IMG/VR virus record: IMGVR_UViG_3300034061_006011
Direction: 5' to 3' (one strand)
DNA from: a virus
Taxonomy: Duplodnaviria; Caudoviricetes
DNA: 64,000 nt
Positions 26,012 through 64,000 of the stretch are shown in pieces. Made by a program: the position numbers and the translations under genes. The notes below the pieces were generated by a model. It saw nothing but the letters and a program-made list of their open reading frames with translations, ran no database searches and was not told where the DNA came from. Within the stretch, counting starts at the first letter, position 1; each line of letters begins with the position of its first letter.

Positions 26012-26914
26012 CTAGTCATCATTTCCATATGTTTCTAAAAGCCAAGACAATGCTCTAGCATATTGTTTTGGATATAGATAATAATGGAATATTTTAATAA
26101 ATTCTTGTGCAATGCTTTCTGATCTAATAATTTGATTTGTTATTTGTTTCAACGCACTTGTTGCCCTTATTGCAGATTTTGTGACTTTCTCAGCTAATCT
26201 TTTTACAAACTCATCAGCATCAAAATCGTCTTCAGGCAAAAACAATTTATCCTCATGCTTCAACATACTGTTTCTGTTTTGATATGTTTTGTCACTTTTA
26301 AGATCTATATCTTTATACTTTTCAAGAAATTCTTCTAAATTAATTTTTTCCCAATTATTATCTCTTTCTGAAAATGAAATAATTTTATCTGGATTTAAAT
26401 TTCCAGTAAATAAAGCTTGATATTCAGAACTATCAAAAAGCACTTTAGTCATATAGGGATTATCACTAGATTTAACAAATTCAGGTTGGTTTTGATCATT
26501 TCTTATTTCGTTTTCAAATCTTTTTTTAGTTGCCAATCTTTCAACCTTGCTTCTAAATGTTGGCATATAAGAACCTTGTGTACCATATGATCCCTGTACC
26601 CAAACTGGTGGTTCTAGATCTTCGTATTTTGCAATAAATTCTACAACGCACCCATCAAGAGCAAAATCTCTAGCTGTTTTTTCTGATATTGTGACAAATA
26701 GTCCTTTAGGATTTGTGTTTGCTTCATAAGAATATTTCCTAGCGGGTCTTAACTGTCCTGAAATGCCATATCTAGCTGCAATTATTGCTTCTGTGACATT
26801 GTCAAACCCATGGAAAACTCTTACAGTGTCTCCTCTTTTCAAAGGTTCAAAATCACCTCGCATGTTGTCATATTTGTGCAAATGCTCGTTTAGCCAATCA
26901 TAAAATGTATTCAT
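26012..26914 (-). CDS. Putative ADP-ribosyltransferase-fold internal head protein
   Basis: Starts MNTFYDWLNE; VFHG...GLFVT...TARDFA..G.VVEF order of ART-like elements. Confidence 0.45.
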   Translation of the reverse strand: MNTFYDWLNEHLHKYDNMRGDFEPLKRGDTVRVFHGFDNVTEAIIAARYGISGQLRPARKYSYEANTNPKGLFVTISEKTARDFALDGCVVEFIAKYEDLEPPVWVQGSYGTQGSYMPTFRSKVERLATKKRFENEIRNDQNQPEFVKSSDNPYMTKVLFDSSEYQALFTGNLNPDKIISFSERDNNWEKINLEEFLEKYKDIDLKSDKTYQNRNSMLKHEDKLFLPEDDFDADEFVKRLAEKVTKSAIRATSALKQITNQIIRSESIAQEFIKIFHYYLYPKQYARALSWLLETYGNDD

Positions 26915-27023
26915 AATGCTATTTATGACTGCGTTTAATAATATTATCGTTCCAAGCATTTGTTTCTGAATAATTAATTAATTAGAAAAGGCTGGTTTTA
27001 ACTCTATATATTGTATAATTTGA

Positions 27024-35918: not shown

Positions 35919-36813
35919 AAAATTTTTCTAAATTGTTTGGTTCAATATAGTTAGCAAACAACAAAGAATTTTTTATTCCAATGTAAGAAATATTTGTGTT
36001 TGAATTTCCAAGTTTTTGCCAGAATAAATTTGCATCAATAATATTTTTTGCAATTTTCTGTTGGGGATAGAAATGAAAATTTGTATCTTCTATTTTCTCT
36101 GTCCCCGGTCTTTGTTTTTCATAAGCATTTATTGGATAAGCAATGCATAATTTTTCACATTTCATTTTAGATGCTAATATTATTGCAGCAGATATTGAAC
36201 TTCTGTATTCATCAATATAATCAGCACTTTTGTGACTAATTGGACTTTCATAATTCTCATCTGGAGTTGTATTGTATCTAAATATTTTGTTTGGATATCT
36301 TTTAATAAATTTGTTGCATGATCTTGAACTTGCTATAAGGAATGGAAATATTCTTTCAGGCAGACAGGTTAAAGAATCTTCAAATGGATTAGTAAAAACC
36401 ATATAGTCTGGTAATCTTTTAGATTTCCAAAATCTGCTAGCACCATAAACTGTGATAATTTTTACATCTTTTGGCAATTGATCTAACCATGCGGTTGAAT
36501 TAGAAAATCCAAATCCATCTGATATTATTAATATTTTTTTGTGGATTATTGTTTCACTAAAAAAATCAAGCATTTGCATTTCTTGATTTTTCATTTCATT
36601 GTCTAGAAGAGTCTTCACTTCTTCTTTGCCATAAAATCCATTAATGTCTTTTGGCACAACATTTGGTTTCAAAAAATTCCTTACCCAAATGTTTTCATCA
36701 GTTAAATAATAATCATTCTTGTTTTTATGCAATTTGATTGTAACATTTTTCTCTTTATTGTTCGGCAGATTTACTTTAAAACTCTTGTAACTCTGCATGT
36801 TATTTTCTATCAT
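35908..36813 (-). CDS. DUF115/Maf-like (MptE-fold) putative sugar transferase
   Basis: KKILIISDG...KIITV...PDYMVF...SSISAAIILASKMKCEKL order typical of the fold. Confidence 0.45.
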   Translation of the reverse strand: MIENNMQSYKSFKVNLPNNKEKNVTIKLHKNKNDYYLTDENIWVRNFLKPNVVPKDINGFYGKEEVKTLLDNEMKNQEMQMLDFFSETIIHKKILIISDGFGFSNSTAWLDQLPKDVKIITVYGASRFWKSKRLPDYMVFTNPFEDSLTCLPERIFPFLIASSRSCNKFIKRYPNKIFRYNTTPDENYESPISHKSADYIDEYRSSISAAIILASKMKCEKLCIAYPINAYEKQRPGTEKIEDTNFHFYPQQKIAKNIIDANLFWQKLGNSNTNISYIGIKNSLLFANYIEPNNLEKFYEQ

Positions 36814-39800: not shown

Positions 39801-40411
39801 GCATCAGATGTACCATCACCAAAATCTAAAATAAAACTATTAATATTTCCATTGATTATAATTTCATATGATATTTCAGTTCCAGTAACTGGACTCGAAG
39901 AAATAGTAGTATAATAAAATGTTACATCAGGACAACCAGAGTCATCTCCTATTTGCGGTAAACCTGCTAAATTTCTAACTCTCCAGTCAACAGTAGCTTG
40001 ATCTGGATTCTCCGTATAACCAATAAAATTTTCAGTGTTTACAATCGCTCTGGCAAGCTGATTGTGATGTTCTGCCATCACAAATCCACGAATATCTGTA
40101 CCAGCAGCATTAAACTTGGAAGACTTTCCACCAATATTACGCAAACAATTCAACAAACCATTCACTTTACTTGTATATTGGTCTTTGCTTACATTTTCGT
40201 AATAAAGAACTTCACCAGATATTGTGGCGTATCCATTATCTGCCCAAACTTCTGGTTTATCAGCATCAACAGGTTTGATATACAATGTTGTATCAAATTG
40301 TTCTGCTGATTTTGTTAGTATACTTTCAGTTGTGTTGTATACGTTAAGGAGTGTATAATCAGAATCATAGTTCTGAGGATATTGTGACGTTGGCGGAAAT
40401 ACTTGCTTCAA
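36800..40411 (-). CDS. Large virion protein: HHN module, PKD, proprotein-convertase P-domain, Pro-rich linker, Cys/Trp repeats
   Basis: TTG start with RBS; LDFGDG PKD; GDVRILVVGPDGTAVLL...ITFDDS P-domain; ~44 Cys in ~350 aa. Confidence 0.7.
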   Translation of the reverse strand: MKQVFPPTSQYPQNYDSDYTLLNVYNTTESILTKSAEQFDTTLYIKPVDADKPEVWADNGYATISGEVLYYENVSKDQYTSKVNGLLNCLRNIGGKSSKFNAAGTDIRGFVMAEHHNQLARAIVNTENFIGYTENPDQATVDWRVRNLAGLPQIGDDSGCPDVTFYYTTISSSPVTGTEISYEIIINGNINSFILDFGDGTSDANSLIGTHIYPPNFVVDPVLTVVNQNCSTVVSGIVRNNVGGAGNLIDARTPATVPTLPIPTALTPGPFPIVTANCDPVIINFPPIVFPNFFANIGPIFIPSTINITPDLNIPSVITVTPFPNIPSFISVSPFPNIPSLISVTPITIGGNVNFDFNDCFTIRTGGINIRSNCTANPYPANFTIAGSLCNGTPSISKMTVEIESLKIFKPSKRLGDVRILVVGPDGTAVLLLAIGANAYTIADYVDITFDDSSTNYILPVSTNTPLLSGTYHPSPNGHENISLLAPAPPAPYKTGLSSFQNINPDGQYEMYVQKFNNDTGYDTCDQIGIIGRALINICVSDNICFGPTAPSSPASAPVASPSSPIFNPGPAAGPASGPASPASGPIPPGPAFPPVPASPGFLPPGPPNPTAPLTPSITPIYLTPSFYPYYPSNCKNCMCRYIFGINSSGIASWAQATGNNAGCRKYGQPADGAFIYQPCDGDCVCRDGSEIPISPIQFIGDIIHIGCKSYCGENCLWEWSSILEEWMPKQIGCFNVSCSCTHPKNPGTTDGELASTGCFKDPGCPNQCEWQYDPGLGTPCHPDIPNPNWRKISNCIGNCECYCLEDLQAPTQPGDYQRFTVCTEHDPTNDCTDVLSEKNECSCQCQWSVQDNRWFSINTCWNYETFDNDKCICCDDCPDVCITSPPPSNRGISGQVVYRPCKKDPSCTPTAPTPPTPSAPVGNCLSCFCSKICSAGIWVATSPCNLSPPTPLGCTASCNCPGLGEACPTEGEEQNDINCQPVPSFAFNATESNIYFAVKDPLLTNNKCECLSINIDNAGLYFENLGLFDNLRDCNRFCEKSNLHLIKAKDKMKNVNFGIEVYNQSKKTEMKFLKLSELNSSKEIEKINTNIEEATLFTPVAKDNVTESDSKSINIDNIPQIVEIYEDSKSEKEEVKNINFVENDSVTEEIKIEKIDIEPVVNQSVVNIENNVTPIINMIKAETVFNKIQDSERESTEFNDRK

Positions 40412-40444
40412 TTTTATGCCCTACCTATTAATATTTAGTTTAAT

Positions 40445-43400
40445 TTAAAATATATTACTATGCCATTGAGAAGAATTTACCCTTTTTGGCAATCTACTGA
40501 ATGTTAAAGTTATATCACTAAACTGAATGAATGAATTGTCTGTGTAGTCAAAGCTAACATATGCTATGTGGTCATTATCAGAACATGCAACAAGAGTATT
40601 TGCTGGATTATTATAATCTGGCTTGGTAGTATCTTGCATTCCTTTGAATGCAAGTGAATTGATACCCGGACCACCAGTTTGCCAAACAGCATTGTTTGGA
40701 TTATAAGCTGAAACACTTCCTGTGTTATTAAAGAAGTACAAACCAGATGAAAGATTAACAAGACCGCCTTCTAATTTTTCTGGTCCAGCAATATCAGCTA
40801 ATTTTTCAAAGTAATAAATAAGGTTAACACCATCTTCTTTTGTTTTATAGAAACTATTTATTTTAAAGAAATCTCCAATACCACTGTTCCTAAGAATATA
40901 ACCATTTCTGCCATTAAATGCAGTTCTGTATACTGAGAAATAACCATAAAGACTTGTTCCATCATCAAATTGTGATGGATTTTGTTTCAATTCTCCAGAA
41001 GAACCTAAGTACTGAATCCCTGATATTGTTGATGTTGAATATGAATTTGATATCAAATCATGTTGAAGAATCTGTTGATTTGTCAAAGAAAGACCAGCAG
41101 GTTGAGTTAATGGATTGCCAAATAGATAATAAATATTATTTTCAAAGCCATAAGCTATCCAGTTCCAAGGTCTGTATGTTGCATTAAATGCATTATAAGT
41201 TTCATTAAATGCATTATAATTTATAGAAATTATCTTTTCTAAACTAACAGGATCAACGGCATCTCTACCTGTCGCATAATTCAACAGAAGACTGCCACCA
41301 TAACCACTTGAATAAACACTATTAAGTGTAGAAAAACTATTTCTAGAAAATTCTCTAATTGCTTGAGTGTCATTTTCTGTGCCTTGCAAGAAATTATCAT
41401 TAATGAAAACTTCTTGACCAGTAGATTGTGTTGTTTTAAATGTGTGACTTAAAAGACCAAATTCGTTTGCGTAAATATAATTTGAATTGGCTCCATAAGT
41501 AAACAAATAATAGTTCTTTAATTCTATTACATTAATATAATTTGCTTTTTGTGTTATTCTATAAGAACCATTTTCTGTCAAGCATTGAAGAACTAGATCA
41601 TAGACTCCACCAATAGGATAACTTATATTTGTGTAAGAATTATTTGGGTGAGAAAGAACATCGCTTAGTATCCAATTGTATTCTGTCACTGGATCAATTG
41701 CGTTTTCTCCATTGTCTGTAACTACAACGTAAAGATTAATATTGTTTGGTGTCTTTACTTGTCCATTTATTTCTATTTGATAAGTGTTTAATTCTGGAAC
41801 AATTGTTGCAAAATCTGGAGCTTCATATCTTGCATTGATATAATCTGGGAATTCTGAAACATTTGTGCCAAATTCATTGGTAACAGTTAATGTTACAGTA
41901 TAAATTCCCGGATTTTGATATGTGTGCGTTACATCAGCTGAAGAGTTTTTGGTGGAATAATTAATAACTTTTGTTGAACCATCTCCAAAATCCCATGTGT
42001 AAGTTATATCATTTCCCCGTAATTCTTTTCCAGAATTAAAACTTAAATCTGTAAAATAAACTTCTAAAGGAACAATTCCTACTGTTGCGTTTGCGTTAAA
42101 CCAAGGTTTTGGATTATAAGCAATACTTCTAATGTAATTAATTCTCTGTTCAATCGTACCAACCAGAGGTTTAGTAGCAATTTGATTAGCAACACCAACA
42201 TAATTCTGAATTGTTTTTAATGCGTTTTTAACAGCATTATGGTGTTGAGCAACAACATTCAATGTGACATTGGTTACATTTTTAGGTTTGTAGGAATCAA
42301 CAAATTCATCTAAAAGTTTAATTCCTTCAAATGTAGTGTTTGTTTTTGATGTGTAATAGAAAGAAATTGCTCTAAATTCAGGTTCACTACAGTTTTCTGT
42401 TAAAGTTATAATCCCTGCATCAGGGAACAAAGCCATCATAATTGGATTGTTCTCAACCACAACTGATATGTCACCAAGATTGTAATCTTGCGCCAACATT
42501 AATCTCAAACTATCTTTTGTAGCATAAAGATTAGCATCGCTATCATATTGTGTTGGGAAGTTAATAGCTGGTAAAACTGCACTTACTTCTGGAGCAACTG
42601 GTGCTACAGGAACAATAGGCGGTAATGGTGTTGCTGGTCCTGCTATTGGTGTCGTAGGTGCAATCGGACTTGGTATTGGAGTCGGTGTCGGTGCAGGTGT
42701 TGGAACGGGAATAGGTGCAGGAACTGGAATTGGCGTTACTGTAGGCGTTGCTGGTCCTACTGCTGGTGTTGCTGGTCCTACTGCTGGTGTTGCTGGTCCT
42801 ACTGCTGGTGTTGCTGCTGGTGTTGCTGCTGGTGTTGCTGGTCCTACTGCTGGTGTTGCTGGTCCTACTGCTGGTGTAGCTGGTGTAAAGCTTGGTGTTG
42901 CTGGTGTAAAGCTTGGTGTTGTTGGTCCTGCTGGTGTAAAGCTTGGTGTTGTTGGTCCTGCTGGTGTAAAGCTTGGTGTTGTTGGTCCTGCTGCTGGTGT
43001 AAAGCTTGGTGTTGTTGGTCCTGCTGCTGGTGTAAAGCTTGGTGTTGTTGGTCCTGCTGCTGGTGTAAAGCTTGGTGTTGCTGGTGTAAAGCTTGGTGTT
43101 GCTGGTGTAGCTGATGGTGTAGGTGTTGTTCTTGATACGCAACTAGTTGTTGCTTCCTGACCTATATAATCGCCTGAATATGTGGGTTGTGCATTCTCGC
43201 ACCAGCATTCTGTCGTGCATGAGTTGTTTATCAATAGCCAATAAGAAAAACCACCCGCTTGAAACCACTGCCAAAAACAACTGCCACATACTGGTGTTGC
43301 TGGTGTTGCTGGTGTTGATGGTGTTGCTGGTGTTGATGGTGTTGCTGGTGTTGCTGGTGTTGATGGTGTTGATGGTGTAAAGCTTGGTGTTGCTGGTCCT

Positions 43401-44911
43401 GCTGGTGTAAAGCTTGGTGTTGCTGGTCCTGCTGGTGTAAAGCTTGGTGTTGCTGGTCCTGCTGGTGTAAAGCTTGGCGTTGCTGGTCCTGCTGGTGTTG
43501 CTGGTGTTGCTGGTCCTGCTGGTGTTGCTGGTGTTGCTGGTGTTGCTGGTGTTGCTGGTGTTGCTGGTGTTGCTGGTGTATACGGAGCAGCCTGCGGCGT
43601 ATGCGGTGTTGCTGGTGTTGCTGGTGTTGCTGGTGTTGCTGGTGTTGCTGGTGTTGCTGGTGTTGCTGGTGTTGCTGGTGTTGCTGGTGTTGCTGGTGTT
43701 GCTGGTGTTGGACTGCATTGAGATTGGTAAGTTTCATCAAGAAAACTAGCAGCATCAAAACATTGATCTTCTGCGTTACTGTCACACATAGTCCATGCTA
43801 ATAAAGTACAATCTGCCCAGCTACCAAGAGGAGAAAGACATGTTTCTAAATTTGCACACGCATCAATTTGAATACCATTAGGACAACAAACCATAGCAAT
43901 AATAGTACATTCAACATCATCGGCAGTTTTACATTCACCTGCAATTGCATCCCAATATGGAGGAATTCCTTGATGCCCTCCACCAGTACATCCATTGGTA
44001 CATTTTGCTTCTGCACCCGGAGTGGCAATAAAGCTACCTGAATCTGTTGTGTAACATCCTTGACTTTCACAGCATTCTTGATCTTGACATTGCGGTCCAG
44101 CTTGTGGTGTTGCATTTGGTGTAGCATTTGGTGTAGCATTTGGTGTAGCATTTGGTGTAGCTGGTGTAGCTGGTGTAGCTGGTGTAGCTGGTGGTGGTTG
44201 ACATGATGTTTGGTATGTATCACCCGGATTATCACAAGGACCGCCATCAATTGGACAAGAAACTCCACATTCTTCTGGGCACTCTGCATTTGTTCTTAAC
44301 CAGTTTCCTTCAATGCAAGCATAGTCACAAGAACCACCACAATTACAAGCAAAATGTCTTTTTTCTGATAAACTAGAACATGGTTCTAATTCTCCCGGAC
44401 AATACTCACCACAAGGTGCAGAACTTTGTGGTCCATCTGGACATGCTCCAAATTGCCCCTCACCAATTTGCCAACAACCTACAGGATAAGCTGGACCGCA
44501 AGGAGAGCATGTTTGTTCACAAAAACAACAGACTGTATCTGCTTCTGCACCAACATTTCCCGAAGTGCAATCATAAGCTGGACTACCACCATAAGTTGAA
44601 CTAGGCTGGGTGCAAGTCCCCATCAAACAATCACGAGTTTTGGTCCATGCATATCCACCATTTTGGGATTCGCATTTCCAACCGCAAGTTAGACCAGTTT
44701 CGTTTATCTTACGCACTTCTTCAACATTATTTCCTTTAAAGTTTTCAATATATTTTAATACTTGTTCAGCTTCATCAAATGTTTCATAAGGAGAAGATAA
44801 TATTGATTCACTTTCTTGTAAAGAATTATTATCTTCTAAATAAAGAATATAAAGATCATCATTATTAATGATGATATACCAACCTTTGATGAATTCTGAT
44901 TCTTCAGACAT
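40445..44911 (-). CDS. Large virion protein: Cys/Trp repeats, PAT mucin-like stalk, HHN module, PKD
   Basis: WDFGDGS...HTYQNPGIYTVTL PKD; PAT/TPSF repeats; Cys-rich N-terminus. Confidence 0.7.
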   Translation of the reverse strand: MSEESEFIKGWYIIINNDDLYILYLEDNNSLQESESILSSPYETFDEAEQVLKYIENFKGNNVEEVRKINETGLTCGWKCESQNGGYAWTKTRDCLMGTCTQPSSTYGGSPAYDCTSGNVGAEADTVCCFCEQTCSPCGPAYPVGCWQIGEGQFGACPDGPQSSAPCGEYCPGELEPCSSLSEKRHFACNCGGSCDYACIEGNWLRTNAECPEECGVSCPIDGGPCDNPGDTYQTSCQPPPATPATPATPATPNATPNATPNATPNATPQAGPQCQDQECCESQGCYTTDSGSFIATPGAEAKCTNGCTGGGHQGIPPYWDAIAGECKTADDVECTIIAMVCCPNGIQIDACANLETCLSPLGSWADCTLLAWTMCDSNAEDQCFDAASFLDETYQSQCSPTPATPATPATPATPATPATPATPATPATPATPATPHTPQAAPYTPATPATPATPATPATPATPAGPATPATPAGPATPSFTPAGPATPSFTPAGPATPSFTPAGPATPSFTPSTPSTPATPATPSTPATPSTPATPATPVCGSCFWQWFQAGGFSYWLLINNSCTTECWCENAQPTYSGDYIGQEATTSCVSRTTPTPSATPATPSFTPATPSFTPAAGPTTPSFTPAAGPTTPSFTPAAGPTTPSFTPAGPTTPSFTPAGPTTPSFTPATPSFTPATPAVGPATPAVGPATPAATPAATPAVGPATPAVGPATPAVGPATPTVTPIPVPAPIPVPTPAPTPTPIPSPIAPTTPIAGPATPLPPIVPVAPVAPEVSAVLPAINFPTQYDSDANLYATKDSLRLMLAQDYNLGDISVVVENNPIMMALFPDAGIITLTENCSEPEFRAISFYYTSKTNTTFEGIKLLDEFVDSYKPKNVTNVTLNVVAQHHNAVKNALKTIQNYVGVANQIATKPLVGTIEQRINYIRSIAYNPKPWFNANATVGIVPLEVYFTDLSFNSGKELRGNDITYTWDFGDGSTKVINYSTKNSSADVTHTYQNPGIYTVTLTVTNEFGTNVSEFPDYINARYEAPDFATIVPELNTYQIEINGQVKTPNNINLYVVVTDNGENAIDPVTEYNWILSDVLSHPNNSYTNISYPIGGVYDLVLQCLTENGSYRITQKANYINVIELKNYYLFTYGANSNYIYANEFGLLSHTFKTTQSTGQEVFINDNFLQGTENDTQAIREFSRNSFSTLNSVYSSGYGGSLLLNYATGRDAVDPVSLEKIISINYNAFNETYNAFNATYRPWNWIAYGFENNIYYLFGNPLTQPAGLSLTNQQILQHDLISNSYSTSTISGIQYLGSSGELKQNPSQFDDGTSLYGYFSVYRTAFNGRNGYILRNSGIGDFFKINSFYKTKEDGVNLIYYFEKLADIAGPEKLEGGLVNLSSGLYFFNNTGSVSAYNPNNAVWQTGGPGINSLAFKGMQDTTKPDYNNPANTLVACSDNDHIAYVSFDYTDNSFIQFSDITLTFSRLPKRVNSSQWHSNIF
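42590..43140 (-). repeat. Coding tandem repeats TPSFTPA(A)GP / TPAVGPA / PAP
   Basis: Repeated ggtgtaaagcttggtgtt and gctggtcctact units on +. Confidence 0.9.
43290..43712 (-). repeat. 9-nt tandem arrays encoding (PAT)n with TPSFTPAGPA units
   Basis: Long ggtgttgct arrays on +. Confidence 0.95.
44100..44195 (-). repeat. (PAT)n and (PNAT)n coding repeats
   Basis: ggtgtagct and tttggtgtagca units on +. Confidence 0.85.
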
Positions 44912-47340: not shown

Positions 47341-47808
47341 TTACAGCAAATTTATACGCCAGTTCCAAATAATTTGAATATCAGATGTTTTTGACAATGG
47401 CGAAAATGTCGCCATTGAGTATAAAACGTCATTATTCAACACTAATCCCATTTCAGAAAGCGAATAACCATTAGCATCGCTGAAACCTAACACAGAAGTA
47501 AAAATAACCTGTGTTGGGTTAGAGTTGTCAATACTTGCTGATACGGTCTTAGAAGCCCTAGTAATGCCAAACAAACCAGTTCTATCTTGATTTACATATC
47601 TTAAGGTTGTACCGTCAACACCATTGTCACCAAAAATCATTCTTGAGACAAACTGTTCATAACTACCAATGCTATTAGCTAAAACTTTTACAAGTTCAGC
47701 TCTACCACCAGCCAAAACAGCATTCTTGAAATCTATGACTTTCTCGGTGCCATTTTTGTCAATAATTTTACCACTTACAGAACCAAGAAAATTCGTTGAA
47801 TCAATCAT
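47341..47808 (-). CDS. Putative baseplate/tail-fibre attachment protein
   Basis: KNAVL.GGR...LSEMGL...K..DIQIIWNW pattern; follows the wedge gene. Confidence 0.55.
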   Translation of the reverse strand: MIDSTNFLGSVSGKIIDKNGTEKVIDFKNAVLAGGRAELVKVLANSIGSYEQFVSRMIFGDNGVDGTTLRYVNQDRTGLFGITRASKTVSASIDNSNPTQVIFTSVLGFSDANGYSLSEMGLVLNNDVLYSMATFSPLSKTSDIQIIWNWRINLL

Positions 47809-50800
47809 ATGTTCCCTTCAGTTTTCTTATTATCTTTAGTTAAAATAGTGTAACCAATACTTTCTTCTTGTACCGAAAAGTCTTTAGTCTCAGAACCAGA
47901 AGCTAAATCAGTCATTGCAAATGCTGGCAAGTTCATTATCTCATTTGTAATTACTTCTTGACCAGATCTATCTACAAAATCAAAATCTTGTAACATAATT
48001 GTTGCCGGATCTTTCACATATCTTATCAAGTCGTAAGAAACCGATGTTCCACCACTTGATATCGTTCCCCATTCTTCAAATTTACCAGATAAAAATAAAT
48101 ACTGATTAAGTCCTATTGTTTCTTCGCTTATTATCGAATAAAAAGAACTGTTAATTTCAATTAAATAGTTTTCTTTAAATGTGCTATCCTCTAATGCATT
48201 CGGATCATTTGGATCTGTAAATGTTGGGAAAGTAATTGGTTTTAAAAATAACATTTTATTATAATCTAAATTTCCACTATCAGCAGTAATTCTTTGCAAT
48301 ACTTTACCACTTACTCCACCTTGATCACCAGCATTGTAATTATCTATATAAATTTCGTTTGATGTATCTGGATATCCATCAATGTAATACTGAGAAGAAT
48401 CAGCATCAAAGAAGAAATAATTGTTTCTTGTTAAAAATGTTTGAATGTTTCCAATACCAGTTCCAGCATCAACTACTACTCTTCCCCTATAAACAACATT
48501 GTAAATACCATCATTTGATTCAAATATTATATTATTACTATTATCAAGAAGCTTGTAATCTAAATTTTCATAATAAGAATTTGTGAGAGACCCATCGTTC
48601 AGCAAGTAAATCTCATTGTTGACTATATTTGTTATTTCATAAATTAATCCAGTTGAAATAATTTGTATCTTCCAACTTGCAACAGCCTGACCATTGTCAA
48701 CATCAAATATAGTTTTTATTGGATAATAAAGGAAGTCTAAGGTAGAATCTGTTATAAAATACAAGTTATCTTGATAAACATCAAAATTAGAATCAGATAA
48801 AACAATATTGGAAAGTATAAAGCTAAATTCTGTTGTGTTTAAAGGTTCACTAATCGAACCAATTATTTCAACATAATTACCAACAGGATTTTGAACAGTA
48901 TATTCTCCGCTATTTACATGTGGAGATAAAATTTCTAATAATGTGTCAGATGAATTATTAGAAATGCCAATCGTTTCTAAATTTTGCAAAGGACAGAACA
49001 AAATAATTGATTCATTATATCCATTTGTTGTTCCACTTTCAGCGGTTTGCGCTGTTGCTAACATATTTCTAAGAACTTGACCATACACATTAGGTCTAAT
49101 ATTTCTGTTAAATATTGTATTAGCTTGACCAGAAATCAAATAATCAGAAGCATTATATTTTATTAAAATCTGCCAAGACTCATATGCTGGAAGCATATAG
49201 TCTTCCATATAGCCATTAAATTTCAATGTGTGAAGAATTGCATGAAATGGCGTGTATTCAGCAATTATTTCTTGTGCCTCGACTAATCTTATATTAGATA
49301 AATCTTGAACAGAAAGTTCTAGATTATATCTAGCACTAATTGTATCTCTACATGGTTCAATAAAGTTCTTGTCAATATCTTTAGGATCAAAACTGTCTCT
49401 TAATGAACCGTTATATTCATCCATGTTATAAGCTTGTTCTGAATATGGAAATTCAGTACGAATTTTACCAAAAACAATTGGCTCATAAAATGGATTTTTA
49501 ACATTTACAATCACATCAAATAAAGGATCTGTCTCTTCAATTGCATAAGTATTCCAATCCTTTGGTGGATACTCAAAATAACGATCATCTCTTGTGTCAA
49601 TCAAAGACAAACCTAATATGTAATTATGAATTTGAACTTGAGTTTCATTAGGAAATTCTTTTATTTGATATGTAATTTTTAATCTCGAAGATAGCTCTAG
49701 AGAGTTTCCTATATATTTCATATAAGAAACACCATTACTTGTATAAATTTCTATGTTGTCTAAGCTTATTGTTGCATAATCTGAAGTATTAGTTTCTAGT
49801 TGTAATAAAAAAAATGTATTATTTTTATCTAAACTTACTTTTGACAATTTAAAAATTGTTTCGCCAGAATACAAGAAACTTTCTGTATGTGAATATTTTG
49901 TCCCAACTTGCCACAATTGAGAAAATTCAACTAATTCCATTCCTGCATCGCTTAATGCTTGTCTAAGTCCTTCTAATCTGCCTTTCATTTTATTAAGAGG
50001 TACTGCTTTCTTAATTTGCTTGCGCCATCTAGTTGGATCAGAACTACGCAGTTTCAAATTGAAAAAGTTAGCCAAGTAAATTAGAAGCGGTTCTTGAAGA
50101 ACATTTGCATCTAGAAGATCAATAATTTGATTTACTAAATCTTCCATTTGCTTAAATCCATCATTCAAAGCAAGATTAAGCTTGTCTAATATTTCTGGAG
50201 TTCTATCTGTATCAGCATATGTACTTTTGTACATTTCTGGTAAATATCTTGTTAGTAAATCATAATACTTTTTTGGTGGAGTTCTGTGTGTTGGATTGCT
50301 GGTATATGCAGCAATGTCACTATTAAGATAAAATGGCAAGTGTGCGCTTAATGTATCACCAGATGGATTTGGTTTCCATTTATAACAAATGAAATAATCA
50401 CCTTCTCTTACATTGAAAGCATCCCAAAAAAATTGAAATCTGCAATAAGGGAATTCATCTGTTGGTGCTTTGATTACAATTGAATCTGTATTTGTTCCGC
50501 CACGAACCCAAAGTGGTTGTGTGGAACTGCCAGCTTGAAAAACTATTTGAGAATTTGCGTAGTAAAATGGATTAGTAACAATGCTTTTTTGCCAAGCATC
50601 AAAAGCATCGTTTGCAAGTTGAGCATTTTCTTCTGATGGATACTCACAGGCAATATTTTTTAGAACAAGATAACGAGCTTCTAAATTAGCTTGAGATATT
50701 TGAGTATCGTATTCTTGAATATTTGGGGAAGCATAATTTCTTTCAATGAAAAAAATTGTGATGTTTTCTATGTAATAAGGATCTATTGGATAGCATTTGT

Positions 50801-50873
50801 TTGCATCCGGTGTTAAGAATATAAATTCAACCCTATCATTAACTTTAGGGTTATCTGTGTATAGCTTATTCAT
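47805..50873 (-). CDS. Baseplate wedge protein (gp7 / P2 gpI-like domain)
   Basis: LLDAN....LIYLANFF...WRKQIKKAV.L.K.KG..EGLRQAL; follows gp6. Confidence 0.7.
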   Translation of the reverse strand: MNKLYTDNPKVNDRVEFIFLTPDANKCYPIDPYYIENITIFFIERNYASPNIQEYDTQISQANLEARYLVLKNIACEYPSEENAQLANDAFDAWQKSIVTNPFYYANSQIVFQAGSSTQPLWVRGGTNTDSIVIKAPTDEFPYCRFQFFWDAFNVREGDYFICYKWKPNPSGDTLSAHLPFYLNSDIAAYTSNPTHRTPPKKYYDLLTRYLPEMYKSTYADTDRTPEILDKLNLALNDGFKQMEDLVNQIIDLLDANVLQEPLLIYLANFFNLKLRSSDPTRWRKQIKKAVPLNKMKGRLEGLRQALSDAGMELVEFSQLWQVGTKYSHTESFLYSGETIFKLSKVSLDKNNTFFLLQLETNTSDYATISLDNIEIYTSNGVSYMKYIGNSLELSSRLKITYQIKEFPNETQVQIHNYILGLSLIDTRDDRYFEYPPKDWNTYAIEETDPLFDVIVNVKNPFYEPIVFGKIRTEFPYSEQAYNMDEYNGSLRDSFDPKDIDKNFIEPCRDTISARYNLELSVQDLSNIRLVEAQEIIAEYTPFHAILHTLKFNGYMEDYMLPAYESWQILIKYNASDYLISGQANTIFNRNIRPNVYGQVLRNMLATAQTAESGTTNGYNESIILFCPLQNLETIGISNNSSDTLLEILSPHVNSGEYTVQNPVGNYVEIIGSISEPLNTTEFSFILSNIVLSDSNFDVYQDNLYFITDSTLDFLYYPIKTIFDVDNGQAVASWKIQIISTGLIYEITNIVNNEIYLLNDGSLTNSYYENLDYKLLDNSNNIIFESNDGIYNVVYRGRVVVDAGTGIGNIQTFLTRNNYFFFDADSSQYYIDGYPDTSNEIYIDNYNAGDQGGVSGKVLQRITADSGNLDYNKMLFLKPITFPTFTDPNDPNALEDSTFKENYLIEINSSFYSIISEETIGLNQYLFLSGKFEEWGTISSGGTSVSYDLIRYVKDPATIMLQDFDFVDRSGQEVITNEIMNLPAFAMTDLASGSETKDFSVQEESIGYTILTKDNKKTEGNI

Positions 50874-52422
50874 AGGTAAAATTAATTCTCGTAGTATCTG
50901 GTCTAATTATTTCAAAATATCTTGCCCTTACAAGCTTTCCGCTATTTTCAGGATCAGAAGTTGTAAAATAAATATCATATCTTCTTGGCTGTTGCATATC
51001 AGACAAAGCCTTAATGACATCAATGTCTCTTAAATTTTGATTGTAATCCCAATTGTTAAGGGAGAAGAAGTTTTGCATTCTTGTTGTTATGTTTGCTCTG
51101 ATGTCGTCTTCAAACTTTTTGTAATATTTATCAATTACAACATTGATAGAAACATCTGAAAGTATTATTTGTCCATCAAGTATTGACAAATAATCTGTCA
51201 TCATCTTGTTTTCATTCATGTATTGTGTAAATTCATATTTGAACTGACTGGAAGAAACAGCTAGATCAAAATTATTAACTTTTGTGAGAATATAAAGTTC
51301 TATGATGTTTGCACTACATCCAGAATGTCTGAGAACTGCATTTGTTTTTCCCATAACACCATTATATGGAGTCACAAACAAATTAGCATAATTTTTATAA
51401 TCAGATCCTGATACACATCTATTTTGTGTTTGGTTGTAAATAGGAAGTTTATATCTAATATCATCTATTGTATCGCCATCGTATCCGTATTCACCTTTTG
51501 TATAATTGGTAAAATTAACAACTGCACTGAAAACTTCGCCTTCAATTGAAACTAATGACTGTGCATTTACAAAATTTGTAACAATATTACCAGAAGTTCC
51601 ACCACCGACTCTATAGGTTGCAACAATAGTTGAACCAGTTGGAGGAATGTATCCAGCACGATTATTGCCAAATATAATGAAAACAGAATAATCAGAATTG
51701 TATTCAACTCTATATTCTCTCTTTGGAGCTGATTCTGTAAAGTATTTTACTTGTTCCCAAGTGACACCGTCAACGCTTACTCTAATTGAATCTAATAGCA
51801 CTGGAGAAAAGTTTAATAAGTAAGCTTGATCTGTTCCACCAGTTCCTGCGAATGTATCTGTGTATGTTCTTCCTTCAATACCAACTATATTGCTATTAAT
51901 TAATGATCCAGATGTTATTACTATGTTTTCATCAAATATTGGTCTTCCCAAAGCATCAGAAGCAAATAATTCAATTGTCGTTGTAACATTATTATTAAAT
52001 ATATCAACAGCATAAGGAGTTTGAATTACAAGATCTACGTTGTATGTGTTTGGAACTCTTGCTGTCCAAAGACTTTTTCCAGCAATAGGTGGTTTTGGAA
52101 CAAATCCTACTAGATTTGCTAGACGTATTGCGTTTTCTAATTCTGTAACTGTGTCAATAAACACTTCATTGGCGATTTGATCTGTCTTGAAGGACAGTGT
52201 ATCAGCAATAAATGCCCAGTTTTCAATAAGCATGATACCAAGACTTGATTCAACAAAGTCATTGAACTCTGTACCAAATTTTTCTTGAATATAAGCAACC
52301 AATCGAGATTTCATTGACCAGAAATCTTGATTGGTGTAATTTAATGAAAAAATTTGAGGTCTTGTGCCATTAGCCCCAGATTTATATGGCGTTAAATCAA
52401 ACGGACACTTCTCCACGGTCAA
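50866..52422 (-). CDS. gp6: Baseplate wedge subunit (gp6 / baseplate J-like)
   Basis: DFWSMK..L, NDFVESSLG.MLIE, ANEVFIDT, FGNNRAG.IP and RCVSGSDY. Confidence 0.9.
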   Translation of the reverse strand: MTVEKCPFDLTPYKSGANGTRPQIFSLNYTNQDFWSMKSRLVAYIQEKFGTEFNDFVESSLGIMLIENWAFIADTLSFKTDQIANEVFIDTVTELENAIRLANLVGFVPKPPIAGKSLWTARVPNTYNVDLVIQTPYAVDIFNNNVTTTIELFASDALGRPIFDENIVITSGSLINSNIVGIEGRTYTDTFAGTGGTDQAYLLNFSPVLLDSIRVSVDGVTWEQVKYFTESAPKREYRVEYNSDYSVFIIFGNNRAGYIPPTGSTIVATYRVGGGTSGNIVTNFVNAQSLVSIEGEVFSAVVNFTNYTKGEYGYDGDTIDDIRYKLPIYNQTQNRCVSGSDYKNYANLFVTPYNGVMGKTNAVLRHSGCSANIIELYILTKVNNFDLAVSSSQFKYEFTQYMNENKMMTDYLSILDGQIILSDVSINVVIDKYYKKFEDDIRANITTRMQNFFSLNNWDYNQNLRDIDVIKALSDMQQPRRYDIYFTTSDPENSGKLVRARYFEIIRPDTTRINFTYE

Positions 52423-52832
52423 CCCCCTTCGAACGGTACTGCTAGCACAAGTTCTTCAATAATATTTATTTTCTCTGGATTTATATAGTTAATTCGGATC
52501 AATACTCCATTCTTGTTTGTCGAATTATAACCAGCTTCAGTTTTTTCAACCAAATCTGTTACAGTAATTGCTGTTACAGTTATTCTTGGTTCCCAAGTGC
52601 TTATTGAATTAGATATTTCTCCTGCAATAGCACTTTTTGTGGCATCAGTGTTTTGTTCAAAAATATACTTTCTCAAAGCTGTGCCATATTGTGGCAACAT
52701 AACTCTATCACCGGGATTTGTTAATATTAATTGAATCAAATCACTTTTTAAGTTTTTAGCGCCAATTTGAGTATAGAAAAATCCTAATGGATTTTTAAAA
52801 ATTGGAAATGGAAAACCTTTTAAATCAGCCAT
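52419..52832 (-). CDS. gp25: Baseplate wedge subunit gp25 (GPW/gp25)
   Basis: LILTNPGDRVMLPQYG...FE...WEPRI. Confidence 0.92.
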   Translation of the reverse strand: MADLKGFPFPIFKNPLGFFYTQIGAKNLKSDLIQLILTNPGDRVMLPQYGTALRKYIFEQNTDATKSAIAGEISNSISTWEPRITVTAITVTDLVEKTEAGYNSTNKNGVLIRINYINPEKINIIEELVLAVPFEGG

Positions 52833-52834
52833 TA

Positions 52835-55021
52835 TTAATTTCCTTCAAGAGGTAAACCACCAGAACATAAATCTTCTCCCGGCAAACAGTTATCAGTTAT
52901 ATTTAGAGCGCCAAGCCCAATACCACTAGCAGAATTGCTACAAGAAGCATAAACTCTATCACTTGCTCTTACACATCCATTTACTAAAACGAGAACTGGG
53001 AACACACCCGGAATACACTGATCAGGATCTGTTGCTGTAGCATCATCTGTAGCTTGATTCAAATCAATTTGCAAAACATTCTCAGGAGGTGGATTTTCTG
53101 CTTCATCTGGTGGAATTGGTGGATAATCTCTACCAGCTAACAGGTAAATTTTTTCATCAAATTGTATCACATGATTGCCTTTTCCTTTGTGATAAAATGT
53201 CTGTTCTGTATAATCAAACCTATTAGTTGCCACATAATTCATTTTGTGACCTTTTACATATTCAAGAGCGTTTTCTTCAGCATAAAGGAATAGATTCCCA
53301 CCTGATCTTATTTGAATATATCCTGATTCTTCCACGCCTTCAAAACCTTCTCTTAATGTAATTTGATGTGGTCTTGAACCATTTTCTATTGTCTTTTGTG
53401 GCGCAGTAATAGAAATATATTGTCCTAATGTTTTATTTTGATCAGAACTATCATCCATTCTTATGGACAAACCATAACCAGTTCTTAATTGCATATAAGC
53501 AGCGGTTGCTTTTGGTTCTGGAACAGCGCCATCTCTTCTACAAGGATATTCTCTAAGATTTCCTCCATCACAAAGGAAAATTTCATGCTGACTAGTAGAA
53601 TTTATTTTCACACCTTGTTTTGAAGAAGCAGCGTCTGTGCAATTTAGACCATCAACAGCATCACATAAAAATATTTGATTTCCTAAAGCACTTTTTATTT
53701 TTACTCCATTATTATCTGCTCTAACTTTATCTGTGTTTGTTCCAACTCTTTCAATATCATTAAGTTCAATTAAATGTCCAGTTGTTGATTTCCAATAAGA
53801 TCTACCAACAAATTTATCATCACAACCAAAATCAAATGCTCGAATGCTTCTATCCCATTCCATATTGCCTCTTGGCTGATGGACAGAATCATCCATTACA
53901 AAACTGTGACCAGAAATAGAAAGAAACTGTATGCCTGTTTGAGGTAAATCACACTTATTATTTTGTGGAGTTTGTGGACCTTTATATGGTCTGCATTCGC
54001 TTTGTTGTTTGAAAAATGGATTTCTACCAATTTGTGAGTCTGGATTAATTTGACTTTCAGGTTCCCCACCAATTATTGTGGATCTATCATCTGTAGAACA
54101 ACCAACTTCTTCGCTTTTAGCAATGACCGGATTATCTTCATAATCAGGATTAAATAAATCAGATATACTTCCTGCTAAAGGAAAACGTGTAAAATCTTGA
54201 TAAGAAAACGCTTCAGGATTAGGAACTCCTTGAATACAACTAGTATCGCCATCTTTAGCAAAATTTGCACAAGCTGGATGCGCCCACTGACCCCCATAGT
54301 GTAAATGGTCATCTTTAAAGCACATCCAGTTGCCATTGCCGCTCATTATTTCTAATCTTTTCCATTTACGGTTGCAACTAGGATCTCCATCAACCATTTT
54401 CATCATGTGTTTTTCTGGAGTTTTAAAACCATAAATGTTCGGCGTTGTCGTTCTCTTAAGAATATTTGGGTCAGAAATTATTTGTTCAATTGAATCAATG
54501 TCAAATCCATTGTATGATTCTGTGTTCCAAGGAGGCATGACTTGTGATCCATCATTAGCTCCACAAAGATATCCGTTTCTTTTTCCTGCATAAATATCGT
54601 TATATTCTATGATTGGATAGCCAAAATAGTTTAATGCGCCCGGTGCTCTATCTCTTGTCCATGTTGTTCCAATATAATAACCAGCACCATTCATGCCATT
54701 TTCAAAAGCTACAATTATTGTTGAACCAGCAGGAGGAACCCATGATGCTCCACAGTCATCAAATCCACCAAACGAAGATATTGCTGATGCCCAAGGTAAT
54801 CCTTCAATAGGAATAGTTGGCTTATGCAAAATTGGAGAAAAATATTGAACTGCATTTTGTTTCCATACATCATATGTGCTAACGCAAATTGCTGTATAAA
54901 TTCCGTAATTATTAATTGGTTGTACTAAATCGGAAATACGCAACTTGTCTGTCGTATCCCACATCGTAGCAATTAAGTCTTCATGCTCTTGAAGTTTTTT
55001 AACAATATCATCAATTTCCAT
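52835..55021 (-). CDS. gp5: Baseplate central spike (gp5/VgrG-like), Cys-rich
   Basis: OB-fold LPWA...VPPAGS.IIVAFENG..G; repeated SGH.F.MDD beta-helix motifs. Confidence 0.75.
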   Translation of the reverse strand: MEIDDIVKKLQEHEDLIATMWDTTDKLRISDLVQPINNYGIYTAICVSTYDVWKQNAVQYFSPILHKPTIPIEGLPWASAISSFGGFDDCGASWVPPAGSTIIVAFENGMNGAGYYIGTTWTRDRAPGALNYFGYPIIEYNDIYAGKRNGYLCGANDGSQVMPPWNTESYNGFDIDSIEQIISDPNILKRTTTPNIYGFKTPEKHMMKMVDGDPSCNRKWKRLEIMSGNGNWMCFKDDHLHYGGQWAHPACANFAKDGDTSCIQGVPNPEAFSYQDFTRFPLAGSISDLFNPDYEDNPVIAKSEEVGCSTDDRSTIIGGEPESQINPDSQIGRNPFFKQQSECRPYKGPQTPQNNKCDLPQTGIQFLSISGHSFVMDDSVHQPRGNMEWDRSIRAFDFGCDDKFVGRSYWKSTTGHLIELNDIERVGTNTDKVRADNNGVKIKSALGNQIFLCDAVDGLNCTDAASSKQGVKINSTSQHEIFLCDGGNLREYPCRRDGAVPEPKATAAYMQLRTGYGLSIRMDDSSDQNKTLGQYISITAPQKTIENGSRPHQITLREGFEGVEESGYIQIRSGGNLFLYAEENALEYVKGHKMNYVATNRFDYTEQTFYHKGKGNHVIQFDEKIYLLAGRDYPPIPPDEAENPPPENVLQIDLNQATDDATATDPDQCIPGVFPVLVLVNGCVRASDRVYASCSNSASGIGLGALNITDNCLPGEDLCSGGLPLEGN

Positions 55022-55034: not shown

Positions 55035-56699
55035 TTATGATTTTAAAGCTCTATTATTCTGTTCCACACCAGTTAATTTCAATTTAGTAATCCATTTACC
55101 ATCTGATAATTCATGATCACAACCATTTATCAAAAAAGCAATAGATGATATCTGATCATTTATTGTTGGCAGAGAAAGCCAGACACCATTGATTTTACCA
55201 TTATCAAAAAGATCTGACTGAATAACTGTGAATGGGTTTATAAATATTATTTTTATAAAAGACCCTATAATGTTCCAAGACCAAAGAAATCTTGGATCAC
55301 CTTGTATTGTCAAATCTGCTGTAACAGCTCCCAACATCGGTTTAGAAAAATTTCCAGCTTCAAGATGTAAAGATGCCGCTTCTGCTGTTTTTTGTCCTAT
55401 TTCTGCCGGTGGAGAAGACTCTCTATTATTAGAAGTAGCTGCTCCAGCAACTACAGTTTCTTTTCCCGGTTCATTGTTAGTTGCAGAATTTTGATTGCAA
55501 CCTTGTATAATTACAGATTTTGAGCTATTTGCTCCACCCGGAGCAGCGCCAACAAATCTGTTTGGAACACCAACAAATTCTATTTTTGGGGAAAATGATA
55601 TTACAGGACTTAAGTCGCCACCGTTAACAACATATGTCCCTACAAATTGTTTTATTTTACAGCTTCTATATTTTGTTCTGTCAATTAAACATTCAGTACT
55701 TTCCGCTTCTACTAAATATAAACATTCGTCATTTGCTCCACTTGGATAACATAAAAACACACCTTTTGTATGATCTGTTACAAAATTATTTAAATTTTTT
55801 GCTATAGCGTCAAGCACAGGTAAGTTATAACCGGGATAAACACCACTTCTTCCTGCATTAGTATCAGCATTTTTTTGTTTTGCATAAGACCAACCACCAT
55901 TTTGACCTTGCGGTTGTCTTACCAACGCTATTCTGCTTCCTTGTTTTGGAGCATTTGTTGGTTTTGGAGGACATGTTCCATCTTGCATCAGTTCAAAAGA
56001 TGTTAATATAGGAATTTTTTGAGAAGATTTTCCCAGAACATTTTGAGTTCTTCTTTGACCCATTTTGGCATCTGGTCCTTTTAATTCTAGTTTATATTTC
56101 CAAATGTTATTATCAAAAGTTACATCTATTTTTGTAACAAGGAAATCAATATAAGGTCCAATCGGTTTTCCCGGCAAAGACTGTTTATCTACAAAACTTT
56201 GTTGATAAATTGCGTTACCACCATTCTTGTTGGTGAAAACATACCCAAAATTAAGAGAAACTTTAATAATATCAGTATTTTTAACGCCTCTTCTAGGTGT
56301 GGCATCACAACGATCTCTATAAACAGAATTATAAAAACTTGTGAAATCCTGACCAGATGTATCAATTATTTCTAATGTTGCACCGTAACTTTGTGATATA
56401 CCCATGCTGGCAGATTTAATGAAAGCTCTTTTGTCTCTATCTGTTCCTAAAAAGTTTCCTGTTGTTATATAATAAGAAACATATCCATTATTATTTTGCT
56501 GTCTAAAATTAGCTTGATTTTCCCTTATTATTCTGAATCTAGCTTCTATAAACGGCGCATAACTTTCATATGATGCGTTTGGAGACAAACCATTTTGACC
56601 CGTATCGGGTAATGGTCGTCTTATATTTCCGCATGTATTGTAATTTTTACCATTTACTATAAATGACGGCAGTGATGGATATTTTAAATTAATAGGCAT
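55035..56699 (-). CDS. Baseplate hub protein (gp27/gpD-like)
   Basis: Position between gp53 and spike; C-terminal ADLTIQGDP...I.GCDHEL..G.W.TKL.L. Confidence 0.55.
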   Translation of the reverse strand: MPINLKYPSLPSFIVNGKNYNTCGNIRRPLPDTGQNGLSPNASYESYAPFIEARFRIIRENQANFRQQNNNGYVSYYITTGNFLGTDRDKRAFIKSASMGISQSYGATLEIIDTSGQDFTSFYNSVYRDRCDATPRRGVKNTDIIKVSLNFGYVFTNKNGGNAIYQQSFVDKQSLPGKPIGPYIDFLVTKIDVTFDNNIWKYKLELKGPDAKMGQRRTQNVLGKSSQKIPILTSFELMQDGTCPPKPTNAPKQGSRIALVRQPQGQNGGWSYAKQKNADTNAGRSGVYPGYNLPVLDAIAKNLNNFVTDHTKGVFLCYPSGANDECLYLVEAESTECLIDRTKYRSCKIKQFVGTYVVNGGDLSPVISFSPKIEFVGVPNRFVGAAPGGANSSKSVIIQGCNQNSATNNEPGKETVVAGAATSNNRESSPPAEIGQKTAEAASLHLEAGNFSKPMLGAVTADLTIQGDPRFLWSWNIIGSFIKIIFINPFTVIQSDLFDNGKINGVWLSLPTINDQISSIAFLINGCDHELSDGKWITKLKLTGVEQNNRALKS

Positions 56700-56700: not shown

Positions 56701-57027
56701 TTACTGGTTATTTATTGGTATCCTAATTGTTTTACCTGCAATAAAATCTTTTATGTCATATATATTGTTGGCTTGCATAATTAACCACCAAGAATCTGGA
56801 TACCCATAAACGCTATTTGATACAAGATCTGGTCTATACGCATAACCTTCTGGAATGACTGTATACTTGTCAAATTGGTTTGCTGGTATCTCCGTTCTTT
56901 TGTAAGTGCTAAATGTTAATTTTTCTTCATCACCATAGACTAAAACAGTTGAATCTTTATATCTTGATAAAGAATTTACATAACTAGAAGCTTTTGCTGT
57001 TTCTGAAACTGATATTTGATACGCCAT
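56701..57027 (-). CDS. gp53: gp53/LysM-like (tail X) baseplate protein
   Basis: YRPDLVS..VYG.PD.WWLIMQANNI.D...G..IRIP. Confidence 0.85.
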   Translation of the reverse strand: MAYQISVSETAKASSYVNSLSRYKDSTVLVYGDEEKLTFSTYKRTEIPANQFDKYTVIPEGYAYRPDLVSNSVYGYPDSWWLIMQANNIYDIKDFIAGKTIRIPINNQ

Positions 57028-57028
57028 A

Positions 57029-57580
57029 TCATGCTCCCAATTGAATAATTCTATCTGCTCCGGGTAAATATCTACTGTCGTAAACAATTTCAAAATTCAA
57101 ATCTACATCAAGCTTATAAGGAAGATATTTACCATTTGCACTATTTACATTCCACACTTGATCAGATGGAAATGATACACTATAACTCAATAACACAACT
57201 GTAACTTCTGTATCAGCTATTAAACTGCCACATTTAATGCTTAATATTTTAGGTGGAATATAAGGAATAATATTATTAGGGTCTGCTCTAGGATAAACAC
57301 AAGATTCTAAATTTCTCAAATTTAATATATTTTGATTAATTGAATTCTGATCATATGAAATAAAATGACATTTCCATCCTATTTTTCTAGATCCACCAGA
57401 ATTAAACGTCTTAAATGGTGTTGATCTACCCATACCAGTTTCTTCAGCATAACCAGCATCTTTACTGTCTGTTATATCTGGTAAGTTGTTCATGAAAATC
57501 TGGAAAGTATTTGAACGAATATAGCAATCAGCAATATCGTTCAATGCTCCCGTTGGTCCTGTTGCTCTTCCTTCTGACAT
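57029..57580 (-). CDS. Tail tube initiator (gp48/gp54, CIS tube-like)
   Basis: GRSTP...F.SGG.R.I, L..LE..VYP and PP..L...G motifs; follows the tape measure. Confidence 0.65.
   Translation of the reverse strand: MSEGRATGPTGALNDIADCYIRSNTFQIFMNNLPDITDSKDAGYAEETGMGRSTPFKTFNSGGSRKIGWKCHFISYDQNSINQNILNLRNLESCVYPRADPNNIIPYIPPKILSIKCGSLIADTEVTVVLLSYSVSFPSDQVWNVNSANGKYLPYKLDVDLNFEIVYDSRYLPGADRIIQLGA

Positions 57581-57613: not shown

Positions 57614-64000
<6,387 letters not shown>

Follow-up and report, generated by a model that had tools for sequence, protein, structure and literature searches.

We analysed a 64,000-nucleotide stretch of DNA from an uncultured tailed phage (Duplodnaviria; Caudoviricetes; IMG/VR record IMGVR_UViG_3300034061_006011), referred to below as the window, with attention to the open reading frame (ORF) that encodes its central tail spike. 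The cysteines of this spike are either conserved among its relatives or coupled in pairs, and a paired pattern is also found in the putative baseplate hub and in a 183-residue baseplate protein (p183). This cysteine feature of the central spike-hub complex is real and family-wide, and the gain and loss of cysteines in pairs across relatives of all three proteins is, at the level of alignments, a signature of disulfides. Stapling of the spike-hub complex by bonds within the complex is, in our judgment, the likeliest reading, at about even odds; we infer that the coupled cysteines are disulfides and that the bonds lie within the spike, and the reason given below for the avoidance of cysteine in the ejected cargo is of the same kind. 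The original prediction had gone further and proposed a crosslinked outer shell enclosing cysteine-free ejected proteins, and a shell of this kind, running through the whole particle, is not supported for the sheath.

Conserved and coupled cysteines of the central spike

The ORF encodes a central spike of the T4 gp5 / P2 gpV / VgrG class that lacks the T4 lysozyme, with a presumed role in piercing membranes. Pfam family PF04717 (Phage_base_V, OB domain) matched residues 77-121 (E value 1e-4; 23.0 bits, marginally below the cut-off of 23.8), and the same family is precomputed for most of 120 spike relatives. An AlphaFold2 (AF2) monomer model built on 111 relatives reached a predicted local distance difference test score (pLDDT) of 79.9. 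With this model, Foldseek ranked T4 gp5 chains first, and an exhaustive VIA search aligned residues 36-162 with phage central spikes and those of contractile injection systems at Z 9.4-9.6, the best matches being 8kea_D (Z 9.6) and 9f4a_BB (Z 9.4, root-mean-square deviation 3.0 over 110 residues), followed by VgrG1 (4uhv, Z 7.9), AFP and the R2 pyocin spike. A PDB sequence search with the spike profile gave no match.

The model begins with an N-terminal helix and an OB fold (residues ∼37-125), continues with a first set of beta-strands (196-236), a cysteine-bearing insert (∼240-360) and a beta-meander (363-572), and ends in a C-terminal domain (625-728). The meander was modelled at pLDDT 90-97 and aligns to T4 gp5 chains, but also to single-layer beta-sheets; as modelled, it is the kind of region that becomes the triple beta-helix in gp5, and a trimer is presumed. 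The protein thus shares with T4 gp5, P2 gpV, Mu gp45 and VgrG of the type VI secretion system an N-terminal OB fold and a long beta-strand region, which forms a trimeric beta-helix in those proteins, and its gene lies, as expected of the class, between the hub gene and the gp25/W-like wedge gene. It differs from T4 gp5 in two respects. Where gp5 carries a lysozyme domain between OB fold and helix, the window spike has a mostly irregular, cysteine-bearing insert within residues 121-360, and no lysozyme or other enzyme family was matched in the spike by Pfam at E <= 0.01. Moreover, T4 gp5 has no cysteine in 575 residues, whereas the window spike has 20 in 728. It also departs from the known central spikes in its C-terminal domain, which carries coupled cysteine pairs and no recognisable PAAR or HxH apex.

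The spike family comprises at least 785 protein clusters from large uncultured phages at E <= 1e-3, and all 120 members inspected contain between 11 and 27 cysteines. In the main alignment (111 sequences, 44-71% identity), to which the following counts refer unless stated otherwise, cysteines 216, 251, 262, 308, 343 and 400 are each at least 97% conserved and lie in a family-specific insert. Distant relatives at 34-36% identity that lack the 251-308 insert have none of these six residues and only 1-9 cysteines in total. C357 is 86% conserved and is replaced elsewhere by Ala, Val or Ile.

Variable cysteines appear and disappear in pairs. Given as both present, first only, second only and neither, the co-occurrence of 461 and 494 was 80/0/2/29, that of 683 and 712 was 44/13/2/52 and that of 669 and 719 was 18/4/0/89. 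A further pair, 633/672, which the window protein lacks, gave 60/0/0/51 and, in a second, more divergent set, 25/0/0/11. On a FastTree phylogeny, 461 and 494 changed jointly in six of seven independent contrasts and never in opposite directions (p = 0.031), and 633 and 672 did so in four of four; control pairs treated in the same tree-aware way were uncoupled (2/9, 1/4 and 1/15 contrasts). Within the C-terminal domain (residues 633-728; 52835-53120, minus strand), the subclade of the window has Y633 and G672 and carries 669/719 and 683/712 instead, while most relatives keep 633 and 672 and never one of them alone. This swap is a disulfide-like turnover of pairs within one domain. In the AF2 model, 461 and 494 are on alternate loops at the same edge of the meander, and the two C-terminal pairs are nested in one chain; both arrangements fit intrachain staples. 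The other eight cysteines (46, 90, 153, 234, 357, 453, 484 and 694) interchange with Val, Ile, Met, Ala, Ser or Asn and are probably free thiols. We also sought the mutual pairing of the six near-invariant cysteines from divergent relatives that miss single ones, and the losses were inconsistent, probably through misalignment of loops, so this approach was dropped.

The neighbours of the spike show a similar pattern. In the hub, C23 and C347 are 98% conserved and cysteines 131 and 243 co-occur as 31/0/2/11 in 44 relatives; in p183, C19 and C117 co-occur perfectly (40/0/0/3). No match was found for the hub in Pfam, in PHROG or by PDB sequence search, and none for p183 in PHROG or Pfam. The paired patterns in hub and p183, like that of the spike, suggest that the hub-spike complex is a cysteine-stabilised unit.

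On the reading that we favor, the ORF would form the trimeric central spike of a T4-like jumbo phage, and about 12 of its 20 cysteines, namely the six near-invariant ones and the three coupled pairs 461-494, 683-712 and 669-719, would be structural, allowing up to six disulfides per chain. The near-invariant residues would sit in the mostly irregular insert between OB fold and beta-helix, at the position of the T4 lysozyme, and the coupled pairs in loops of the beta-helix and in the C-terminal domain. Oxidation would create the bonds after the virion has left the reducing cytoplasm; they would staple loops and stiffen two regions, the insert next to the hub and the C-terminal domain, the latter perhaps being the piercing tip.

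Cysteine in outer and ejected proteins

The census covers the 64-kb window, which holds no capsid genes, and its statistics use the window average of 1.30% cysteine as background. Recounting confirmed the numbers on which the original prediction rested: 20 cysteines in the 728-residue spike, 6 in the 208-residue tube-1 and none in the 2081-residue tape measure. The generalisation drawn from them, a cysteine-decorated outer virion, was not confirmed. The 17 tail and baseplate ORFs other than fibres contain 66 cysteines in 6393 residues (1.03%), compared with 1.82% in 34 other ORFs (Fisher p = 1e-4), and adding the two fibres raises the tail and baseplate set to 1.90% against the same 1.82%. Several outer baseplate proteins are free of cysteine: the gp25-like and gp53-like proteins, p155, p276 and the PKD protein p339 have none, and their relatives nearly none (gp53-like, 3 in 4,488 residues; gp25-like, 0.15%). 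Only the spike (2.75%), tube-1 (2.9%), p183 (2.2%), the hub (1.6%) and the two fibres (3.3% and 4.8%) are enriched, the fibres most strongly. These giant fibres are the main cysteine-rich outer components; they hold 107 of the 305 cysteines of the window (3.98% together) in repeated modules of ∼35-45 residues of the type CxxCxWxW...C...CxC, separated by (TPA)n-type linkers. Cysteine-rich non-structural ORFs (29022-30797, 32759-33718) were considered and dismissed, as their cysteines have ordinary explanations; 8 of these cysteines lie in a Cas4-like PD-(D/E)XK nuclease, 10 in a Toprim primase that carries a CHC2 zinc ribbon and 12 in a GT9-like glycosyltransferase.

The claim that ejected proteins avoid cysteine held as a statistical statement. 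The absence of cysteine from the tape measure has a probability of 1.4e-12 against the window background, and the depletion is family-wide, with 37 cysteines in 39,362 residues of tape-measure relatives (0.09%). The protein is rich in Ala, Gly and Leu, contains only 3 His (0.14%) and is also poor in Tyr and Trp, so part of its cysteine deficit reflects a general bias. It had no Pfam or PHROG match. Its relatives range from 1011 to more than 2500 residues, indicating very different tail lengths within the family.

The proposed head cargo consists of ORFs with N termini like the T4 capsid targeting sequence (CTS; MKTF.E-type). Six of the seven have the 0 or 1 cysteine originally ascribed to such proteins (0, 0, 1, 0, 1 and 1; 3 in 1720 residues, P = 3.5e-7). 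The seventh, 23960-25021(+), has five, arranged as two CxxC pairs and one further residue; its probable start is Met8, giving the CTS-like leader MLNYEKWKKLNE, and its cysteine arrangement makes a zinc-binding head cargo possible, an exception to the cysteine-poor rule. Including it, the set remains depleted (8 in 2051 residues, 0.39%, P = 2e-5). In the leader-tagged cargo, His, Trp, Tyr and Phe are at normal levels and cysteine is about 8-fold lower, indicating that the depletion is specific to cysteine. None of the leader-tagged ORFs had a PHROG or Pfam match.

What did not stand is the avoidance of cysteine as a special trait of this phage. T4 served as a control: its tape measure gp29 has no cysteine in 590 residues, its prohead core proteins gp21, gp22, gp67 and gp68 have none and Alt has 3 in 682. 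Its spike gp5 and its fibre gp34 (0 in 1289) are equally free, 39 late genes together average 0.62%, and a few T4 enzymes reach 1.2-1.7%. No disulfide network is known in T4; since T4 shows the same cysteine-free state, a cysteine-free tape measure and cysteine-free head cargo are the T4-type default, and they do not in themselves indicate that a virion is crosslinked. Specific to the present lineage is the gain of cysteine in spike, hub, tube and fibres. In the proposed mechanism, the cysteine-poor cargo would accordingly be a separate, generic T4-type trait: the tape measure, as parallel bundles in the tube, and the leader cargo packed in the head would both have to exit through the tube, and stray crosslinks that would block this exit are the likeliest reason for avoiding cysteine.

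Alternatives to bonds within the spike

Several observations weigh against disulfides in the spike. The excess of cysteine over the window background is marginal after ∼60 tests (P = 0.0018), so the significance of the spike lies in the conservation of its cysteines and not in their number. Tree-aware significance was reached for one pair only, and 683/712 and 669/719 offer few independent events. The insert alone (residues 185-412, 42-sequence alignment) folded poorly, with pLDDT 40. Finally, invariant or conserved His and Asp residues (H205, H239, H241, H248, H372, H416, D211/213, D237/238 and D377/378) lie near the cysteines and make metal sites possible.

The last point leads to metal binding, in which invariant cysteines, His and Asp would jointly bind Zn or Fe ions and the spike would be stiffened by metal instead of disulfides; we regard this as unlikely. 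Metal-loaded spikes are established for the gp5/gpV class, with an Fe-loaded HxH apex in P2 gpV and phi92 gp138 and Zn in PAAR tips, and reportedly feature in work on this protein class by Browning and colleagues from 2012. The window spike has an HLH motif at 239-241 (H241 invariant, H239 94% conserved), and H248 and C251, spaced as H-x2-C, are conserved at 87% and 99%. Similar, extremely conserved His/Asp motifs appear repeatedly where successive beta-strand pairs begin, between residues 200 and 424 (K204-H205 with D211-G-D213; K236-D-D-H-L-H241; G371-H372 with D377-D378; G415-H416 with D422 and E424). As an observation in its own right, these recurring motifs may be sites for metals or ions on the axis within the beta-helix, or an interface with the hub. 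No PAAR gene was present in four related records, one of them rated complete, and PF05488 (PAAR) matched neither these records nor the spike. The HxH motif of P2 gpV is at the tip, whereas the HLH motif of the window spike is in the middle of the protein. The spike has no CxxC or CxC motif, and its two closest cysteines (712 and 719) are 7 residues apart, unlike zinc sites; no metal-binding Pfam family matched it. Moreover, its variable cysteines are gained and lost strictly by twos, one pair taking the place of another within a domain, a better fit to disulfides than to sites of three or four ligands. Pairwise turnover and the absence of closely spaced ligands favor disulfides over metal for the coupled residues, while the six near-invariant cysteines would fit either.

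A network between subunits, as in phages Milano and Pam3, seems to us quite unlikely. Under this explanation, spike, hub, wedge, tube, fibres and completion proteins would be covalently linked, and contraction would require these links to be reduced or broken. The precedent invoked by the original prediction is real: in Agrobacterium phage Milano, a soil myophage, disulfides linking baseplate, sheath and fibres were shown experimentally, and structural proteins contain 2.1% cysteine compared with 1.4% overall (PMC10811340). In the freshwater cyanomyophage Pam3, disulfides within and between subunits occur in gp6/gp7-type wedge proteins, and the fibres are joined to the wedge through N-terminal cysteines and released by dithiothreitol (PMC9942802). 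Pam3 offers a freshwater precedent for bonds between subunits, and the fibres of the window are rich in cysteine.

Several window proteins have cysteines in places that would suit such a network. Invariant residues lie near termini or in extensions, as with C6 of the gp6-like protein, C23 of the hub and all three cysteines (18, 38 and 73, an odd number) of the gp15-like protein, which are confined to an N-terminal extension before the Pfam match, as originally proposed. The gp6-like protein keeps C6 and C369 invariant in 48 sequences and the gp7-like protein keeps C508 (100%) and C163 (93%), a likeness to the Pam3 wedge. In tube-1, all six cysteines fall within residues 141-201; among 25 sequences C141 and C188 are 100%, C201 96% and C171 84% conserved, and its C-terminal extension adds further conserved cysteines (171, 196/197 and 201). 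The conserved pair 136/182 of tube-2 appears, by position and spacing, to correspond to C141/C188, so that both tube paralogs keep a pair. This recalls the tail tube gp39 of a siphophage, which is crosslinked through a clade-restricted pair of conserved cysteines (PMC13576161), although the window tube family is T4 gp19-like (PF06841) and belongs to a contractile tail, where the pair could be inter-ring or intrachain. The near-invariant spike cysteines are also odd in number (seven) when C357 is included.

Other results speak against the network. Among 21 distinct sheath sequences (53-98% identity), C538 alone is invariant, and cysteines 544, 610, 722 and 742 interchange with Ala; a conserved sheath network of the Milano type was not found in this set, and a stapled shell is unsupported for the sheath. 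The cysteine-free baseplate proteins and the lower cysteine content of tail and baseplate relative to non-structural ORFs point the same way, since Milano shows the opposite bias, with more cysteine in its structural proteins. C357 is replaced as a buried free thiol would be, and the coupled spike pairs are nested within the topology of one chain. The window phage resembles Milano in having a contractile tail, conserved cysteines in virion proteins and a cysteine-free lumen protein beside cysteine-bearing baseplate parts, a likeness of cysteine pattern read here from genes; the sheath-sheath and wedge bonds between chains in Milano are without demonstrable counterpart. Pam3 differs in that its cysteine-rich regions are the wedge and the fibre N termini, whereas the strongest signal in the window genes is in spike, hub and p183.

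The search for a thiol oxidase, suggested as a check on a crosslinked particle, found none in the window or in four related records. Erv/ALR, DsbA and thioredoxin-fold families had no match among the window ORFs. The four related records contained no DsbA and no Erv1, though the Erv1 search drew no signal in control genomes either and is uninformative; a single thioredoxin was found among them, in a 532-kb record. To our knowledge, Milano and Pam3 need no thiol oxidase either.

A more specific idea, which we put forward as a long shot, is that the hub-spike complex is a redox-gated plug. Disulfides of insert, hub and p183 would hold it shut in oxic water; at the host envelope they would need to undergo reduction or isomerisation before the spike can leave, after which the cysteine-free tape measure and cysteine-poor cargo would pass. 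If so, infection would depend on thiols of the host envelope.

That the cysteine counts lack structural meaning and are a product of composition and drift (the tape measure being helical and of low complexity, the head cargo disordered and the spike tolerant of cysteine) could draw on the His, Tyr and Trp depletion of the tape measure, the marginal enrichment of the spike and the free swapping of 8 of its 20 cysteines, but is highly improbable given six cysteines conserved at 97% or more where overall identity is 44-71%, coupled pairs with independent events, cargo depleted of cysteine and not of His, Trp, Tyr or Phe, and tape-measure relatives that stay at 0.09% cysteine throughout.

Features of the window and meaning for the phage family

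The window has a low GC content (∼33%) and holds the tail and baseplate region of the phage (Table 1). The order on the minus strand resembles that of Mu and P2: tape measure, p183, gp53-like protein, putative hub, spike, gp25-like, gp6-like and gp7/P2 I-like proteins, small proteins and two giant fibres. From the tape measure to the gp7/I-like gene this order is kept in 21 related loci. The sheath, the two tube paralogs and the gp15-like completion protein lie apart, at 8.9-13.7 kb of the window.

Table 1. Features of the window discussed in the text, with positions counted from its first nucleotide
Feature	Coordinates	Strand	Basis
Central spike, 728 aa, 20 Cys (2.75%), intact ORF	52835..55021	-	PF04717, Foldseek, VIA, AF2 model
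Spike residues 216-400: six near-invariant Cys, C357, H241 within HLH motif	53822..54376	-	Alignment of 111 sequences
Spike residues 461-719: coupled Cys pairs 461/494, 669/719, 683/712	52865..53641	-	Co-occurrence counts, tree-aware test
Putative baseplate hub, 554 aa, 9 Cys	55035..56699	-	Position between tape measure and spike, Mu/P2-like order
p183, 183-aa baseplate protein, 4 Cys	57029..57580	-	Conserved synteny
gp53-like baseplate protein, 130 aa, 0 Cys	56701..57093	-	PHROG 7145, E 2.6e-12
Tape measure protein, at least 2081 aa, 0 Cys, frame open to window end	57614..63859	-	Synteny and length variation among relatives
gp25-like baseplate wedge protein, 137 aa, 0 Cys	52419..52832	-	PHROG 261, E 1.5e-18
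gp6/J-like wedge protein, 518 aa, 3 Cys	50866..52422	-	PHROG 219, E 2e-28
gp7 / P2 I-like wedge protein, 1022 aa, 6 Cys	47805..50873	-	Pfam Tail_P2_I, E 1.2e-6
Tail tube paralog 1 (tube-1), 208 aa, 6 Cys	9510..10136	-	PHROG 4542, E 2e-23
Tail tube paralog 2 (tube-2), 196 aa, 2 Cys (136, 182)	8909..9499	-	PHROG 4542, E 2e-27
Tail sheath, 783 aa, 5 Cys	10176..12527	-	PHROG 23, E 1e-83
gp15-like tail completion protein, 332 aa, 3 Cys	12735..13733	-	Pfam T4-gp15_tss at residues 96-318, E 3e-18
Two giant fibre proteins (1203 aa, 58 Cys; 1488 aa, 49 Cys)	36800..44911	-	Cys/Trp modules, Pro/Thr linkers
Seven ORFs with T4 CTS-like leaders: 14704-15216(+), 15234-15932(-), 17523-19448(-), 20380-21012(+), 21043-21501(+), 23960-25021(+), 26012-26959(-)	14704..26959		N-termini

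Spike relatives at 39-43% identity occur in records of more than 500 kb, namely IMG/VR contig L080 (532,729 bp) and LR756511.1 (595 kb). L080 shares the gene order of the window, is classed as a provirus with a CheckV completeness of 100% and codes for a thioredoxin. Records with members of the spike family range from fragments of ∼90 kb up to megaphage size.

Disulfides in phage particles have been shown only recently, in Pam3 in 2023, in Milano in 2024 and in a siphophage tube in 2026. The known cases have their bonds in sheath, wedge, fibres or tube, whereas in the window the pair-coupled cysteines concentrate in spike and hub, at the position of the T4 lysozyme. If confirmed, disulfides within the spike-hub complex would represent a different way to stiffen or lock a piercing device, and reducing agents would provide a simple handle on the infectivity of such jumbo phages.

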